10,854 nucleotides of DNA from a virus (lineage: Duplodnaviria > Heunggongvirae > Uroviricota > Caudoviricetes), in the IMG/VR virus record IMGVR_UViG_2740892230_000028; one strand, written 5' to 3'. How positions within the stretch are numbered: the stretch's first letter is position 1; the number at the start of each line of letters is the position of its first letter. Positions 301 through 9,088 of this stretch are shown here, piece after piece. The notes beneath the pieces are model-generated. The model did not search any database. It was not told where the DNA came from and was given only the letters and a program-made list of their open reading frames with translations. A program made the translations under genes and the position numbers.

Positions 301-362
301 TGATAAACCCTGGTTAAAATCCACACGATAACAACACAACAATATCAGTATCTCATGCTATT

Positions 363-388
363 GCCCGAACCCATTCGGGCATTTTTTA
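363..388 (+). terminator. Intrinsic terminator, plus strand
   Basis: GCCCGAA-CCCA-TTCGGGC perfect 7-bp stem (363-380) followed by ATTTTTTA. Confidence 0.6.
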
Positions 389-520: not shown

Positions 521-580
521 GAAAATAAAGGGATAACGATGATAGTTTGAGAAAAACAGAAACAACACTTTTGCGGCAAA

Positions 581-688
581 GCATGGTGCCGGGTGCCTCC
601 CGGTGAATTCAGTATCAGCACCTGAATCCGCGATTATCCCATATACCTGGTTGCTGATCGCCCCTCCGCACAGGGGGATTCACCATGC
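581..688. repeat. Structured repeat element bounded by 8-bp inverted termini GCATGGTG ... CACCATGC (full copy)
   Basis: Contains internal hairpins CCGGG-TGCCT-CCCGG and CCCCT-CCGCAC-AGGGG and an EcoRI palindrome. Related copies or parts at 445-476, 759-810, 1751-1874 and 1957-2028. Confidence 0.6.
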
Positions 689-758
689 AGTAGTATTTTT
701 AATAAACAGCAAATAAAAAAATCAAGCATTATGCAGGCTGTTTCTTTTNNNNNNNNNN

Positions 759-1139: not shown

Positions 1140-1475
1140 ATGAAGTGGATTGTGATTGATACAGTTATCCAGCCATCATGCGGAATATCTTTTTCAGTCA
1201 TATGGAGTAAAATAAAATTAATAATCTGGTATCAATCGGATGCTTTCTTACCTCCTGAAAGTATATTTACACTGACTCACACAGGCATCATGCTCAATAA
1301 CAAAGTGCTGCCTGTAACCATTTACAACGTAGTACCATTCAATAAAACATTCTGGAATTTAATCAAAAACAGCCAGGAATGCCCTACAAATACAGATAAC
1401 GTATTGAATGAATGCTTTAATAACCGTTGCACTCTGCAAATATGTCCTTATGGGCTAAAACAACAAAGTCCATAA
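1140..1475 (+). CDS. Hypothetical orphan ORF in an AT-rich island (111 aa), opposite in orientation to the prophage genes
   Basis: A 111-codon open frame in visibly AT-rich DNA where stops should be frequent; AGGA about 8 nt upstream of the ATG; stop codon sits inside a 9-bp inverted repeat (TCCTTATGG / CCATAAGGA, 1443-1476). No recognisable family. Confidence 0.25.
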
Positions 1476-1696: not shown

Positions 1697-1750
1697 GTCC
1701 ATAAGAAAGCCCCTCCGGAGAGGGGCTGGAGAGTGGCGCTATGTGCCATT

Positions 1751-1874
1751 GCATGGTGCCGGGTGCCTCCCGGTGAGTTCAGCCCGGTGCCACTAAACCC
1801 TCGTCATTCTCGTTTTGATAATCAGAGATTATACCGTCACCAGTCGCCCCTCCGCTCAGGGGGATTCACCATGC
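1751..1874. repeat. Structured repeat element, variant copy with the same 8-bp inverted termini and a different central segment
   Basis: Starts GCATGGTGCCGGGTGCCTCCCGGTGAGTTCAG and ends ...CCCCTCCGCTCAGGGGGATTCACCATGC. Confidence 0.55.
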
Positions 1875-1956
1875 AAAACTTTTTTAACAACTCTCCGTCA
1901 ACCAGACAATCATCAACTGCCTGAATTGTGAGGCATTTAACATTTCNNNNNNNNNN

Positions 1957-2028
1957 CCAGCACCTGAATCCGCGATTATCCCATATACCTACTCGCTGAT
2001 TGCCCCTCCGCACAGGGGGATTCACCAT
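1957..2028. repeat. Partial copy of the structured repeat, bounded by N-runs on both sides
   Basis: Matches 615-686 with a few substitutions. Confidence 0.55.
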
Positions 2029-2038
2029 NNNNNNNNNN

Positions 2039-2179
2039 TATCACCGGCCACAGCAATACCACAATGCCGCAGACCAGCACCCCATCCGCCAGCACCGACA
2101 TGATTCTGCTGGTGAAATCCACCATCACCACCAGAAACAGCAGGAGTGCAGCCACAGCCAGGCGCAGTTTTACCGTCAC
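2039..2179 (-). CDS. Small membrane protein, N-terminal fragment (truncated by N-run)
   Basis: GTG start overlaps the upstream stop in a GTGA junction; MTVKLRLAVAALLLFLVVMVDFTSRIMSVLADGVLVCGIVVLLWPVI is strongly hydrophobic. GC content is higher than in the neighbouring morons. Confidence 0.35.
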
Positions 2180-2398: not shown

Positions 2399-2426
2399 TT
2401 AAAAAAAAGGCCCGCAAAAGCGAGCC
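2399..2426 (-). terminator. Intrinsic terminator immediately downstream of the tRNA cluster, minus strand
   Basis: Minus-strand GGCUCGC-UUUU-GCGGGCC stem (one G-U pair) followed by a run of about 10 U. Confidence 0.6.
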
Positions 2427-2440
2427 AGGGAAAATAAGTG

Positions 2441-2517
2441 TGGCGCGTTGTACTGGATTCGAACCAGTGACCGATTGCTTAGAAGGCAATTGCTCTGTCC
2501 GGCTGAGCTAACAACGC
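2441..2517 (-). tRNA. tRNA-Arg (anticodon UCU), prophage-encoded
   Basis: Hand-folded cloverleaf: acceptor GCGTTGT/ACAACGC, D stem GCTC/GAGC, anticodon stem ATTGC/GCAAT with loop CTTCTAA, T arm ACTGG-TTCGAAT-CCAGT, discriminator G, CCA present. Confidence 0.85.
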
Positions 2518-2530
2518 TGGATACAGATAA

Positions 2531-2607
2531 TGGACCGCCTTCGGGGACCCGAACTCCGCGCAACCAGCTTCGAAAGCTGGCGCTCTTTCCTGATGAGCTA
2601 ATGGCGG
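2531..2607 (-). tRNA. tRNA-Arg-like (anticodon UCG), possibly degenerate
   Basis: Perfect anticodon stem CCAGC/GCTGG with loop TTTCGAA and CCA end, but an A-A mismatch in the acceptor stem, one mismatch in the T stem, and T-loop TTCGGGT (G where A58 is expected). Confidence 0.5.
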
Positions 2608-2614
2608 TATGTGA

Positions 2615-2690
2615 TGGTGGCCCTTGCTGGATTTGAACCAGCGACCTGGCGATTATGAGTCGCTCGCTCTCACCACTGAGCTAAAGGGCC
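2615..2690 (-). tRNA. tRNA with CAU anticodon, Ile2-like (lysidine type) or Met elongator
   Basis: Acceptor GGCCCTT/AAGGGCC, D stem GCTC/GAGC, anticodon loop CTCATAA, T arm GCTGG-TTCAAAT-CCAGC, CCA. Overall close to the E. coli tRNA-Ile2 sequence as I recall it. Confidence 0.8.
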
Positions 2691-2718
2691 GGGTCAAAAA
2701 ATAATAATCAGATGAAAA

Positions 2719-3432
2719 TCAATAATCAAGCCCTTGCCTGGATACATATCTGTCTGGCGGGAAGCCATAATAGCGGTGAAATACAGAAATAAAGTAGGAC
2801 CAGCTTGAATAACCGCATTTTTCTGCTACAGCCTGTCCATATCCATGCCGGGAACATAACATATTCACAGCAACACGCATCCGCTCTTCCAGCAACAAGC
2901 GACTGAACATGTGCCCTTCATTTTTCAGTTTTATCTTTAACAAACTCTCACTCATATGCAGGCGTAACGCAATCGCACCAAGCGTCCAGCTTGCTGATAT
3001 ATCTGTCTGAATTATCGCCCTGACTTTGGCACTTATACTGGATAAACATCCACTTAAAAATAATAATATCCGTTCATCTGATTCAAACAGCGACAGGCAT
3101 GCCATCATAAGAAACATATCCGTGGTATCTCCGGAAAATCTCTGGCTGGTAATTAAAGCCTCAGCCAACGCAGGGTTGTTGGGTTCCAGTGACAGATAAA
3201 GCGGAACGTCAGTCAGATGAGTTCTTGTCAGCTTATGCTGAATTTCCAGATATTGACTTACTATGGAATGGTTTATATCGAAAATTTTAACTTTGCCATA
3301 ATGCATAAGGAAAAGCGCCCTGATGCATTTGGTGGCCAGAACGACTGAGCCGGGCTTAAGTGACAACGTATCCTTTTCAAGAAAAATATTAATTGGGGAG
3401 CAAACCATGATAACTGAACAGACAACAACCAT
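2719..3432 (-). CDS. AraC/XylS-family transcriptional regulator (prophage moron)
   Basis: C-terminal double HTH signature ...SWTLGAIALRLHMSESLLKIKLKNEGHMFSRLLLEERMRVAVNMLCSRHGYGQAVAEKCGYSSWSYFISVFHRYYGFPP...; AT-rich gene. Start is ambiguous (ATG at 3432 or 3408) and neither has a clear SD; a TATAAT-like hexamer abuts the first ATG. Confidence 0.8.
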   Translation of the reverse strand: MVVVCSVIMVCSPINIFLEKDTLSLKPGSVVLATKCIRALFLMHYGKVKIFDINHSIVSQYLEIQHKLTRTHLTDVPLYLSLEPNNPALAEALITSQRFSGDTTDMFLMMACLSLFESDERILLFLSGCLSSISAKVRAIIQTDISASWTLGAIALRLHMSESLLKIKLKNEGHMFSRLLLEERMRVAVNMLCSRHGYGQAVAEKCGYSSWSYFISVFHRYYGFPPDRYVSRQGLDY

Positions 3433-3570
3433 TATAATTTTACTTTCATTAGCAATTGGTTAGTTCAATTATAGCCCCAAAAGGTAAATTATCATCAACA
3501 CATAAGCAAAGGACTGACAGGTGCCGCTAACACCCACCAGCCGCCCATTTACCACAAATANNNNNNNNNN

Positions 3571-3781
3571 GCACCCGCCAGAACTGCGCCAGACACTGGT
3601 CCAGCCACTTCAGGTAATCATCGTCGCCCTTCCACTGGTTATCCCAGCCCTCAGGCTTCACTTTAAAGTACGGCGGGTCCGTGACTATCAGGTCAACAGA
3701 ATTTTCGGGTAACGACCGGATAAATTCCAGGCAGTCGGCGTTGATTAACTCACAACTGGATATTTTTACAGTATTAAGCAT
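3571..3781 (-). CDS. DNA N6-adenine/N4-cytosine methyltransferase, N-terminal fragment (interrupted by N-run)
   Basis: MLNTVKISSCELINADCLEFIRSLPENSVDLIVTDPPYFKVKPEGWDNQWKGDDDYLKWLDQCLAQFWRV contains the DPPY catalytic motif of amino-methyltransferases. Only about 70 codons lie before the N-run. Confidence 0.7.
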
Positions 3782-3920
3782 GGATCATTAAGCCTGTCTC
3801 TGATAGGCTCATTCTGCTTTTGCGCAAAGCAGTGGGCCTGAGGTTTGCTTGTGAACCCAACGCATGAGCAGATGGCTGGTGGGTGCCCCTAACACCCACC
3901 AGCCGCCCATTTACCACAAA

Positions 3921-3945
3921 TAAAAAAGCCTTCACTGCGGAAGGC
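3921..3945 (-). terminator. Intrinsic terminator after the small ORF, minus strand
   Basis: GCCTTC-ACTGCG-GAAGGC perfect 6-bp stem (3928-3945) with a six-U run on the minus strand (plus-strand A-run 3922-3927); the ORF stop lies within the hairpin. Confidence 0.6.
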
Positions 3946-5879: not shown

Positions 5880-6240
5880 CGTTACCACCTCTGATTTCGT
5901 AAATCTTCACGCCCAGCCGTCCACCTGGCACAGGCTGACCGCGCACAATATTGATTTCATCAAACTGCTCGTCATCAATGAGCACTTCCGCATGCGTCAG
6001 CGCATCCAGCGGTGCTTTCAGAATGTTGTCCAGGTCACGGCGGCGCTTATCCGGTGGTTCTGCAATAATTTTTATTGCCAGCCGTCCGGACAGGCTTAAT
6101 TTCAGCCGCTGCTGGCGAACAATAAGCGCCACAGCCCGGCGATAACGCTCACCGGCTTTTGATACAAAATATGTGCTGCCACGACGTCGCCAGTAGGTGT
6201 TCACCGTCGGCGGGTAAGGCAAAACAAACTCTATACGCAT
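5869..6240 (-). CDS. rusA: Crossover junction endodeoxyribonuclease RusA (Holliday junction resolvase)
   Basis: [41 protein letters not shown]...[31 protein letters not shown]... matches the conserved RusA core (DKRRRDLDN); AAGAGGT SD upstream of the ATG at 6240. Confidence 0.9.
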
Positions 6241-6252
6241 CAGTAACCTCTT

Positions 6253-6827
6253 TTACCCGAGCACGCCGGTTGCAAAAGCGTGATCAAGAAAACGAAAAAT
6301 TAAATCAACCTGGGAACCATGCTTTTCTTCGAACGCCAGCGGATCCGCATGAAGCTCGTTGTGATGCTCCCGACACAGCGGTAGCGTGAAAATATCGTGG
6401 GATTTTGTTCCCATTCCACCCTGACCATGACCAATCAGATGATGAGGATCGTCCGCTGGCTTACCACAACACGCACACGGCTGTGTCTTTACCCAGCGTG
6501 TGTATTTCTCATTTACCCAGCGGCGACGTTTAGGTCGTTTCATGAAGGATTCCGGAGACTCCGGATCAACGGCAATGCTGACCACCGTCTTTTCCTGTGG
6601 TGGGTTCTGTTGCTGGTGGGTGTGAGGCGGTAGCGCAATATTTTTTGTGCGCTGCTTCAGTATGCTGGTGGCGGTCTGTTCTCCCGGTATGATGTCGCTT
6701 TCACGGTATACGGAGCGGATTTTTTCCGCCGGTAATCCCAGAGAACGACGCGATACTGCCTCAGGTAATGCGTCCACCACCTGATTGCAGACTGCCCACC
6801 AGGATAATTCAGCCAGCGATAATTCCC
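6253..6827 (-). CDS. DUF968 (YdfU-like) prophage protein, C-terminal ~190 codons (5' end lost in N-run)
   Basis: ...ELSLAELSWWAV...TVVSIAVDPESP...WVKTQPCACCGKPADDPHHLIGHGQGGMGTKSHDIFTLPLCREHHNELHADPLAFEEKHGSQ...; stop TAA at 6253-6255 is 12 nt before the rusA start. Confidence 0.75.
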
Positions 6828-6837
6828 NNNNNNNNNN

Positions 6838-7148
6838 CCCACCACAACGCTGGCAGTTTCTGAAAACCGGCACACCCTGTTTTTCCGACTCTTCACGATG
6901 AATGGCAACACCGCGCCCACGACAATCTGTACAGGCGGTGGAAACCTCCCCCTTTCCGCCACACTCCGGACAGGCAACTTTTANNNNNNNNNNACCACCA
7001 CAACGCTGGCAGTCTCTGATAACAGGCATACCACGTTTTACCGACTCTTCACGATGAATGGCAACACCGCGCCCACGACAATCTTTACAGGCGGTGGAAA
7101 CCTCCCCCTTCCCTCCACACTCCGGACAGGCAACTTTTACCACCTCCC
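6838..7148 (-). repeat. Two near-identical ~150-bp coding units, each encoding a paired CxxCxGxG zinc-ribbon module, separated and flanked by N-runs
   Basis: 6838-6983 and 6994-7148 differ by several substitutions; each encodes ...KVACPECGGKGEVSTAC(K/T)DCRGRGVAIHREES.K.G.PV.R.CQRCGG. The same module begins at the end of the Q-like N-terminal piece (7159-7245). Confidence 0.6.
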
Positions 7149-7158
7149 NNNNNNNNNN

Positions 7159-7734
7159 GACACCACGCCCACGGCAATCCTTACAGGCGGTGGAAACCTC
7201 ACCCTTTCCGCCACACTCCGGACAGGCAACTTTTACCACCTCCCTGACTTTTTTCCATTCCTCCCAGTAAGACGGATACACGCCTTTTGTGCACTTTGCC
7301 CACACTGGCGGCTTACCATCCGGATACTGGATCTTGTTTGTAAAAACCTCGCTTTCAATAAATTTTTTTCCGTGACAGCAGGGGCACTGTTTTTTGCTCG
7401 CCGCGCTACGGGCATAATCTTCAAACGCATACGAAGCCATAATGCGCATCACTACCGGTTTTATTTCTGCCGGGAGTTTTCTCAACGCCGCCACACGATC
7501 GCACCGACTGAGTGCATAATCTGCCAGTAATTCTGTTGCCCGCGCCCTGTCATTCATACTGATGCCCATTTTCCCCAGGAACGCAGAAAACCCCATCTCA
7601 GCCCGATTCTGTGTCATGCCCTGCGCGGCCATCACATCAGTGATACTCAGCGCATCTTTTGACGTTGAGGCCGATGCATCAGTCAGGCCGGGGGATTTTG
7701 GGGAGTAGTATTTCGGTAAATCTTCCAGTTTCAT
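7159..7734 (-). CDS. Lambda-Q-family antitermination protein, N-terminal part (3' end lost in N-run)
   Basis: MKLEDLPKYYSPKSPGLTDASASTSKDALSITDVMAAQGMTQNRAEMGFSAFLGKMGISMND...MASYAFEDYARSAASKKQCPCCHGKK... aligns motif for motif with my recollection of the lambda Q N-terminus (SPKSP, TDVMAA.GM.Q, GF..AF.GK, S.ND, FAY.DY.RSAA, C..CHG). The ATG at 7734 overlaps the upstream rusA stop (ATGA). Confidence 0.65.
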
Positions 7735-7968
7735 TTTTTGACCTGCCCTTCAAGCATTATGGGGTAAATCTTCACCCCCATACGTCCACCAGATACTGGC
7801 TGACCACGAACGATATTGATTTCATCAAACTGCTCATCGTCCATTAACACTCCCGCATGCGTCAGCGCATCCAGCGGTGCTTTCAGGATATTGTCCAGGT
7901 CGCGACGACGCTTATCCGGTGGCTCTGCAATCACCTTTATCGCCAGCCTTCCGGACAGGCTTAATTTC
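7731..7968 (-). CDS. rusA: RusA, C-terminal half (5' end lost in N-run); runs directly into the Q-like gene
   Basis: ...[78 protein letters not shown]. Confidence 0.75.
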
Positions 7969-7978
7969 NNNNNNNNNN

Positions 7979-8243
7979 GCAACCCCGCATGCGTCAGCGC
8001 ATCCAGCGGCGCTTTCAGAATATTGTCCAGGTCACGGCGGCGCTTATCCGGTGGCTCGGCAATAATCTTTATCGCCAGCCTTCCGGACAGGCTTAATTTC
8101 AGCCGCTGCTGGCGAACAATAAGCGCCACAGCCCGGCGATAACGCTTTCCCTCCTCCGAGATAAAATATGTGCTGCCACGGCGTCGCCAGTAAGTGTTCA
8201 CCGTCGGCGGGTAAGGTAAAACAAATTCTATGCGCTCGGTCAT
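7979..8243 (-). CDS. rusA: RusA, N-terminal part (3' end lost in N-run); a different copy from 7731-7968
   Basis: [88 protein letters not shown]; the segment before the N-run overlaps in homology with the segment after it, so the two pieces are not contiguous. Confidence 0.75.
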
Positions 8244-8590
8244 TTATGCTTTCCACTTCAGAACACCCGAATTTCTCGCGTGCATTAAAAAACGAATCAG
8301 CAACAACAGCTGGCTGCCGTGTTTTTCTTCAAAATCTTTTACCCCGGCGTGTAGTTCGCTATGGCATTTACGGCACAGCGGAATAACAAACAAATCATCA
8401 GCCTTTGTTCCCATCCCTCCCAGTCCATGACCAATGATGTGATGCGGATCATCTGCCTGATTGCCACACGTCATGCATTTCTGCGTTTTTACCCAGCGCG
8501 TGTATACAGGCATCTCTTCCCGTTGTGATTTCTGGCGCTGGAGATACTGAGCCGGTGACTCCGGATCAACGGCAATGCTGACCACCGTCT
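8244..8590 (-). CDS. Divergent DUF968-type C-terminal Cys/His domain protein (5' end lost in N-run), immediately followed by rusA
   Basis: TVVSIAVDPESPAQYLQRQKSQREEMPVYTRWVKTQKCMTCGNQADDPHHIIGHGLGGMGTKADDLFVIPLCRKCHSELHAGVKDFEEKHGSQLLLLIRFLMHARNSGVLKWKA*; roughly half the residues match the other DUF968 C-termini. Confidence 0.6.
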
Positions 8591-8600
8591 NNNNNNNNNN

Positions 8601-8633
8601 TGGCGGGTAAGGTAAAACCAAATCTATGGGCAT
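8601..8633 (-). CDS. rusA: rusA 5' fragment (first 11 codons, then N-run)
   Basis: ATG at 8633 with AGAGGTGA SD; MPIDLVLPYPP matches the RusA N-terminus (cf. [11 protein letters not shown] at 6240). Confidence 0.6.
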
Positions 8634-8645
8634 CAGTCACCTCTT

Positions 8646-9088
8646 TTACCCAAGCACGCCTGTTGCGAAGGCGTGATCAAGAAAATGAAAAATTAACTCA
8701 ACCTGGGAGCCGTACTTTTTCTCAAACTCCAGCGGGTCAGCATGAAGTTCGTTGTGGTGCTCCCGGCACAACGGTAGTGTGAAAATATCGTGGGCCTTTG
8801 TTCCCATTCCGCCCTGCCCATGGCCAATCAGGTGATGCGGATCATCAGCTGGCTTTCCACAACATGCGCACGGCTGCGTCTTAACCCAGCGTGTGTACTT
8901 TTCATTAACCCAGCGACGACGTTTAGGCCGTTTCATGAAAGATTCCGGAGACTCCGGATCAACGGCGATGCTTACTACCGTCTTTTCCTGTGGCGTGGTT
9001 TGTGGCTGGTGGGCGTGAAGCGGTAGCGCTATGTTTTTTGTGCGCTGCTTCAGGATGCTGGTGGCGGTCTGTTCTCCCGGTATGATGT
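8646..9088 (-). CDS. DUF968 (YdfU-like) protein, C-terminal part (second copy; 5' end lost in N-run)
   Basis: ...IIPGEQTATSILKQRTKNIALPLHAHQPQTTPQEKTVVSIAVDPESPESFMKRPKRRRWVNEKYTRWVKTQPCACCGKPADDPHHLIGHGQGGMGTKAHDIFTLPLCREHHNELHADPLEFEKKYGSQVELIFHFLDHAFATGVLG*. Fragment 9099-9247 is a further paralogous linker piece. Confidence 0.75.

Follow-up and report, generated by a model that had tools for sequence, protein, structure and literature searches.

What is the AraC-type regulator gene that adjoins a tRNA cluster in the Caudoviricetes record IMGVR_UViG_2740892230_000028, and how are its mRNA and protein started? An initial annotation of this DNA had taken it for a candidate host-modulating regulator with a leaderless or otherwise unusually initiated mRNA. 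In the window, by which we mean the whole stretch of 10,854 nucleotides that was analysed, the gene occupies a single open reading frame:

2719-3432, minus strand: psrA coding sequence, 237 aa plus stop (ORF and translation)

Judged by sequence identity, this ORF is psrA. The gene encodes an AraC-type regulator that is carried on prophages of pathogenic E. coli and has been characterised before. We consider it very probable that the locus as a whole is a known moron regulator with its own promoter, a leadered mRNA, translation from a first AUG lacking a Shine-Dalgarno (SD) sequence, and a role in acid resistance and secretion.

The ORF product is identical to WP_000261909.1 (strain E2865) and to the protein of EDL933_RS06220, and the contigs with exactly this protein number at least 1000. 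Positions 2400-3561 of the window differ from ECs1087 and ileZ1-argN1-argO1 of the Sakai prophage Sp4 by 3 substitutions in about 1150 positions (99.9% DNA identity), and they match 503 records at ≥99% identity, with hundreds of complete E. coli genomes. When ECs1087 is read from the first ATG the sole difference in the coding sequence is synonymous, and its promoter region equals that of the window over the 129 nt that can be read before a run of N. There is no gene-level difference between ECs1087 and the PsrA of the window, apart from the original annotated start of the former (M43, 195 aa). The gene ecs1087 (Sp4) is called psrA in a PLoS Pathogens article of 2026, written by the laboratory from which the description of the Psr regulators came (PMC13502914), and this naming, together with the identity to ECs1087, leads us to assign the ORF to psrA. 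The comparison with characterised prophage AraC-like regulators, proposed in the initial annotation, has thus ended in an identical protein, and its candidate host-modulating regulator is the psrA allele of Sakai Sp4, with a function that is already published.

The locus tags conflict between sources, as PsrA is given as z1789 of OI-50 in extracts from reviews versus ecs1087 of Sp4 (PMC13502914). In the resequenced EDL933 genome, the protein identical to ECs1087 sits in the prophage adjacent to yccA, and an AraC gene was not found in the potC-adjacent prophage, which carries nleL, espN and espK. From these effector genes, we take the potC-adjacent prophage to be CP-933N/OI-50.

According to extracts from reviews of Tree 2011, Bender 2012 and Yang 2015, PsrA and PsrB raise GadE and YhiF and in this way repress type III secretion of the LEE; PsrA therefore lowers type III secretion through GadE. 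The review extracts also state that the hdeA promoter is bound by both PsrB and PatE, with PsrB binding the gadE promoter as well, leading to more acid resistance, and that psrA helps the bacteria to persist in a ruminant model of colonisation. HnrS, a prophage sRNA that represses hha, elicits a response of both psrA and gadE (PMC13502914).

The proposed AraC double helix-turn-helix (HTH) C-terminus is borne out by matches to two Pfam models and to a solved structure.

2734-3033, minus strand: C-terminal DNA-binding domain with two HTH motifs, residues 134-233 (Pfam, PDB)

Pfam HTH_18 covers residues 155-230 at 36.6 bits (cut-off 33.6), HTH_AraC scores 35.3 bits (cut-off 26.6), and the solved DNA-binding domain of GadX (PDB 3mkl) aligns to residues 134-233 with E=1.5e-18; further PDB matches to PsrA were Rns, CsvR and ToxT. 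PsrA has the C-terminal domain of about 100 aa with two HTH motifs by which the AraC/XylS family is recognised. A single-sequence AlphaFold2 model of the protein reached a mean pLDDT of 38.4 and a pTM of 0.29, and is unusable for the N-terminal domain.

The best NCBIfam models for PsrA are those of YdeO (E=9e-30, full length) and GadX (E=4e-25), and the scores, 104.1 bits against a cut-off of 348 for the YdeO equivalog NF007407 and 88.5 bits against 500 for the GadX model, lie so far below the equivalog cut-offs that PsrA is an orthologue of neither. The K-12 proteins YdeO and AppY, the latter carried on prophage DLP12, are each 29% identical to PsrA, and have the N-terminus and the DNA-binding domain in common with it. 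PatE, which we took as Sakai ECs0287 by its position in Sp1 (z0321/OI-8 in EDL933), is like PsrA a prophage-borne AraC-like activator of acid resistance, and shares with it an N-terminal M-x-x-x-C-S-V motif and the order of domains, but differs in length (247 aa), in sequence (37% identity) and in having no adjoining tRNA cluster. With only 37% identity to ECs0287, PatE was ruled out as the identity of the ORF. From these alignments, PsrA is placed in the YdeO/GadX/AppY/PatE group of AraC/XylS-family regulators.

A second copy in O157:H7 genomes, the PsrB-type protein WP_000301797.1, has the same length as PsrA and is 91% identical to it, which fits the identity of 90% between PsrA and PsrB given in extracts from reviews; the differences, about 9% of the amino acids, are spread over both domains. 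This copy has leader and TATAAT elements as in psrA, and lies ahead of ileZ in a different lambdoid prophage, one with a PerC/Pch gene.

The initial annotation had also described the gene as a moron next to the phage tRNA cluster. This description holds: psrA is an extra gene between phage genes, with tRNA genes directly downstream (2690-2441), and its position is the one that morons classically occupy in lambdoid late regions.

2441-2690, minus strand: tRNA cluster ileZ (CAT), argN (TCG), argO (TCT) (ARAGORN, Rfam, Sakai/RefSeq annotation)
2401-2426, minus strand: strong intrinsic terminator, GGCTCGC-TTTT-GCGGGCC followed by T8, closing the psrA-tRNA block (scan: 7 pairs, 6 of them GC)
3562-3571, unstranded: run of 10 N, a scaffold gap, 130 nt upstream of the ATG (sequence)

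In six complete genomes, the order is a Q antiterminator, a CPBP protease (or another gene), a 198-nt ORF with a terminator, psr, tRNA-Ile/Arg/Arg and a NanS-p-type esterase; in one strain stx2d takes the place of the esterase after the psr-tRNA block. At the position of the gap the complete genomes read CCTTCAGTCCTGAAGG CTTTTTTATTTGTGG. Owing to the gap, the window lacks both the terminator stem and the 198-nt ORF found ahead of psrA in these genomes, and only 129 nt of upstream sequence are contiguous with the gene. The features expected of a moron are found as follows: a transcription start of its own, active in the lysogen under all conditions (EDL933), a terminator upstream in the complete genomes, a strong terminator downstream, but only after the three tRNAs, and a GC content of 42.3% for the ORF against 47.6% for the window. 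The psr gene is absent from the corresponding slot in another EDL933 prophage. Among deposited phage genomes, a full-length psr allele was found only in phiSTEC1575-Stx2k (92% DNA identity). A PerC-family (Pch) gene, which along with effector loci is expected to accompany psrA on a lambdoid prophage, lies a few kb downstream of the identical psrA in E2865, in Sakai Sp4 (pchA) and in EDL933; the window ends or breaks at runs of N before any such position. In the Stx2d prophage of NZ_CP063153.1 (1628-3841; hereafter L007), which carries a psr allele with 89% protein identity, only the three tRNAs stand before stx2dA.

The genome of E. coli has about 51% GC, and relative to this value psrA is AT-rich as initially claimed; within the window its bias is only modest, since 23% of all 714-nt segments of the sequence have a GC content as low as psrA or lower, and the neighbouring CPBP gene has 37.9%.

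The first tRNA begins 28 nt past the psrA stop, and a scan found no convincing terminator between the two, which makes co-transcription of psrA and the tRNAs possible. A promoter-like site, TTGATT-17 nt-TATTAT (2729-2701), overlaps the 3' end of psrA. The tRNA at 2615-2690 is called tRNA-Met (CAT) by ARAGORN, whereas the Sakai and RefSeq records annotate the identical gene as tRNA-Ile (ileZ), whose CAT anticodon reads AUA after lysidine modification. Among the codons of psrA, 7 of the 17 for Ile are ATA and 6 of the 13 for Arg are AGA or AGG, rare codons that the adjacent tRNA-Ile(CAT) and tRNA-Arg(TCT) decode.

The start of transcription is known from a published Cappable-seq study of EDL933, in which LB, minimal medium, acid and salt were each sampled in both growth phases, exponential and stationary, eight conditions in all (PMC10469882). 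It lists a start at 1265979 for gene RS06220 in 8/8 conditions (gTSS, Table S5), and gives it as the main start in 8/8 (Table S7), the mean relative read scores being 24-36 for exponential-phase and 36-95 for stationary-phase samples (PMC10469882). The psrA ATG of EDL933 is at 1266008, that is, 29 nt downstream. Since the window and EDL933 1265870-1266060 agree at all 181 nt that can be compared, we transferred this start to A3461; it was mapped in EDL933 and not in the source strain of the window, and the transfer rests on the 181-nt identity. The second psr copy of EDL933 has a near-identical leader, so that reads may be shared between the copies; the geometry is the same in both, and the conclusion on the leader is unchanged if they are.

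3461, minus strand: main transcription start (A), transferred from EDL933 1265979
3433-3461, minus strand: 5' untranslated leader of 29 nt, AU-rich, AACCAAUUGCUAAUGAAAGUAAAAUUAUA, without SD (start mapping)
3468-3473, minus strand: functional -10 hexamer TATAAT, 7 nt ahead of A3461 (promoter scan)
3490-3495, minus strand: weak -35-like hexamer ATGATA, 16-nt spacer, putative (promoter scan)
3512-3542, minus strand: imperfect hairpin upstream of the promoter (terminator-like scan; better copy at 3858-3922)

The promoter scan returned ATGATA-16 nt-TATAAT (-10 at 3473-3468; 10/12 matches), which predicts a start near 3461, and this was the only promoter-like site on the minus strand upstream of psrA. 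The same -10 is retained as TATACT, within a small conserved block, in a psr homologue of 59% protein identity (hereafter L008), which is 78% identical in DNA over the part that matches and has otherwise diverged upstream. As shown on the identical EDL933 sequence, psrA is transcribed from its own sigma-70-type promoter with a 29-nt leader.

Further upstream, the 65 nt just before the promoter (3496-3560) recur as a direct repeat at 3858-3922, with 86% identity. The latter copy is a perfect hairpin, GGCTGGTGGGTG-TTAGGGG-CACCCACCAGCC, and is followed by the N-terminal part of a DNA methylase (3781-3572) that runs into the N gap; the 59%-identical psr homologue (strain 2014C-3338) likewise comes after a methylase remnant.

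A minor second sense start was recorded inside the gene:

3400, minus strand: minor internal sense start, salt conditions only (2) (EDL933 1266040, Table S5, PMC10469882)

The hexamer TATCAT (3412-3407) sits 7 nt upstream of it. Start 3400 lies past M1 and M9, and its transcript could encode only the form beginning at M43. An antisense start lies inside psrA at window position 3116 on the plus strand (EDL933 1266324, minus), is seen in 8/8 conditions and points towards the psrA promoter; a second one, EDL933 1266169 (window ~3271), is seen in two conditions (PMC10469882). One could imagine that psrA output is shaped by antisense RNA from 3116 and by the salt-specific start 3400, through the 195-aa form, acting as a brake or switch on the PsrA-GadE route, and in addition by co-transcription with the tRNAs that serve its rare codons (13 in psrA itself), a proposal that we regard as doubtful.

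As regards the start of translation, the N-terminal conservation across the family points to the first ATG:

3430-3432, minus strand: true start codon, first ATG (N-terminal conservation)

M1, C5, S6 and V7 are invariant in 6 aligned family members, an alignment that besides PsrA took in the 91% O157 copy, the 59% homologue, PatE (37%), YdeO (29%) and AppY (29%), and the conservation of M-x-x-x-C-S-V across the family argues for a true start at the first ATG. Non-synonymous changes occur at codon 2 (V, A, N, D) with the frame kept, M9 is replaced by Leu in the 59% homologue, and the Psr variants and PatE all have G28, S29, L32, R38 and F41. On this protein conservation, the first ATG is the psrA start codon.

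The rival reading is that the real product is a 195-aa protein beginning at M43 (ATG 3306-3304), the first 42 codons being an untranslated leader. It has in its favour the original annotation of Sakai ECs1087 (588 nt, 195 aa), the start at 1266134 in the annotation used by the Cappable-seq study (PMC10469882), a weak SD-like pairing of -3.1 kcal/mol ahead of M43, and the salt-only start 3400, which lies downstream of M1 and M9 and could express only the 195-aa form. Against it, residues 1-42 are conserved as protein (M1, C5, S6 and V7 through YdeO and AppY), position 43 is not conserved (homologues have Ala or Thr there), the alignment with the YdeO model begins at PsrA residue 1, the main transcription start is upstream of M1 in all conditions, and the current PGAP annotation uses M1 everywhere, giving psrA 714 nt in every complete genome examined. 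We therefore hold an M43 product to be improbable, and the 195-aa annotation in the Sakai reference record is probably too short.

With the first ATG as start, translation has to begin without an SD, and in this the initial annotation was correct: the best duplex with the anti-SD in the 20 nt upstream of the first ATG has -0.4 kcal/mol, 71% of random 20-mers of the window bind the anti-SD as well or better, and the neighbouring phage genes form duplexes of -1.7 to -8.2 kcal/mol. The leader with the first 51 nt of coding sequence is less structured than its shuffles (z=+1.33; 188/200 shuffles fold at least as well), and its centroid fold is fully unpaired. SD-independent initiation on A/U-rich leaders, assisted by ribosomal protein S1, is common in E. 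coli, and so a start of this kind is not unusual. An unstructured A/U-rich leader without an SD fits such initiation, and translation of psrA probably relies on it, in a leadered, SD-independent and S1-assisted manner, where the dependence on S1 is what we infer from these properties.

A mini-ORF in the leader (3432-3449, minus strand; ATG 3449, MKVKL, with its TAA overlapping the psrA ATG as TAATG) was considered as a means of translational coupling and rejected, because it is not conserved: its ATG is ATT in the 92% allele L007, it is absent in L008, and it lacks an SD of its own. It is probably due to chance.

The initial annotation had drawn attention to a TATAAT-like hexamer at the first ATG, and such a hexamer does exist, as a perfect TATAAT that overlaps the ATG by two bases:

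3431-3436, minus strand: TATAAT overlapping the ATG, part of the leader and not a leaderless-promoter element (no transcription start at the ATG, not conserved)

Could the psrA mRNA then be leaderless, with its start at or within 1-2 bases of the A of the first ATG, set by this TATAAT or by TAAAAT at 3442-3437, and initiated by 70S ribosomes? The missing SD and the hexamer overlapping the ATG are what this reading would lead one to expect, and TAAAAT would set +1 near 3432-3430. As transcription begins some 7 nt past a -10, a hexamer overlapping the ATG is too close to it to set +1 there. The only sense starts recorded for the gene are 1265979 (-29) and 1266040 (+32), with none at 1266008 in eight conditions (PMC10469882), so a start at or within a few nucleotides of the start-codon A is not what the EDL933 data show. 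Neither hexamer has an acceptable -35, which is why the promoter scan did not report TATAAT 3436-3431, and both are absent from the 59%-identical homologue (L008), in which the hexamer at the ATG reads TTCAAAATG. In the window, TATAAT occurs 5 times against 5.0 expected. TAAAAT as a leaderless -10 is ruled out in the same way, by the lack of a recorded start, of a -35 and of conservation. The leaderless hypothesis is refuted by the published start map (PMC10469882), and we give it hardly any weight. The wider suggestion of an unusually initiated mRNA is not supported either, as the mapped mRNA carries an ordinary 29-nt leader. A conventional leader with a downstream start codon had been named in advance as telling against a leaderless mRNA; the EDL933 map shows such a leader, although the first ATG remains the start codon.

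The mRNA of lambda cI made from PRM is leaderless. Its likeness to psrA is that of a phage regulator gene without an SD before the AUG; unlike in the leaderless cI mRNA, the psrA start is mapped 29 nt upstream of the AUG.

That psrA has no role of its own and only persists, silent or decaying, as a remnant within a cryptic prophage is hardly credible, even though it sits in defective prophages, is AT-rich and likely silenced by H-NS/Hha, and adjoins a scaffold gap and a repeat mosaic in the window, since the ORF is intact and on record many times over (503 records at ≥99% identity, 1000 or more contigs, as given above), substitutions between alleles keep the frame, the promoter is active in 8/8 conditions in EDL933, and phenotypes are published for psrA and psrB mutants, according to extracts from the literature.

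With psrA read as a functional, leadered regulator gene, the course of events is the following: psrA is carried as a moron in the late region of EHEC/STEC lambdoid prophages and, as shown on the identical EDL933 sequence, is transcribed in the lysogen from its own sigma-70-type promoter (-10 at 3473-3468) from A3461 with the 29-nt leader. Translation would begin at the first AUG (3432) without an SD. From the literature, the 237-aa PsrA would then bind AT-rich promoter DNA via its C-terminal double HTH and raise the expression of gadE, yhiF and hdeA, giving more acid resistance and, through GadE, less LEE type III secretion. The correct label for the ORF is psrA, 237 aa, with the first-ATG start, which matters little beyond annotation. 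The presence of psrA helps to describe the regulatory make-up of the source strain, as this gene is documented to tie prophage content in EHEC to acid resistance and to type III secretion.

As to the remainder of the window, it contains at least three runs of N (749-758, 3562-3571 and ~6984-6992), and late-region genes (DUF968, RusA, Q-like) occur in tandem copies that are 85-93% identical (5899-6508 versus 7764-8901, and others). In no complete E. coli genome is 80% of the window covered at a single place. It resembles a scaffold put together from short contigs of several similar prophages, and with its N-runs and repeats the gene neighbours beyond 3561 should not be trusted; ORFs that span a run of N, such as 6253-7734 (DUF968, Antiterm and DnaJ-finger domains), may be artefacts.

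On the other side of psrA, Rfam matches above the gathering thresholds were obtained for AgvB (phage anti-GcvB sRNA; 96.5 bits) and twice for STnc100 (102 and 158 bits), the matches lying at 326-387 (plus strand), 545-714 (minus) and 1697-1902 (minus). An sRNA called EvrS is reported from EDL933, where it lies between z1789 and z1793, the gene of the esterase. The segment ~750-1500 is AT-rich (31-35% GC), and regions matched elsewhere include an annotated anti-adapter protein IraM and DUF1737 (window 1140-1475, plus strand). Downstream of the tRNAs lies a DUF3927 ORF (1976-2179, minus strand), as in the prophage that carries the PsrB-type copy.
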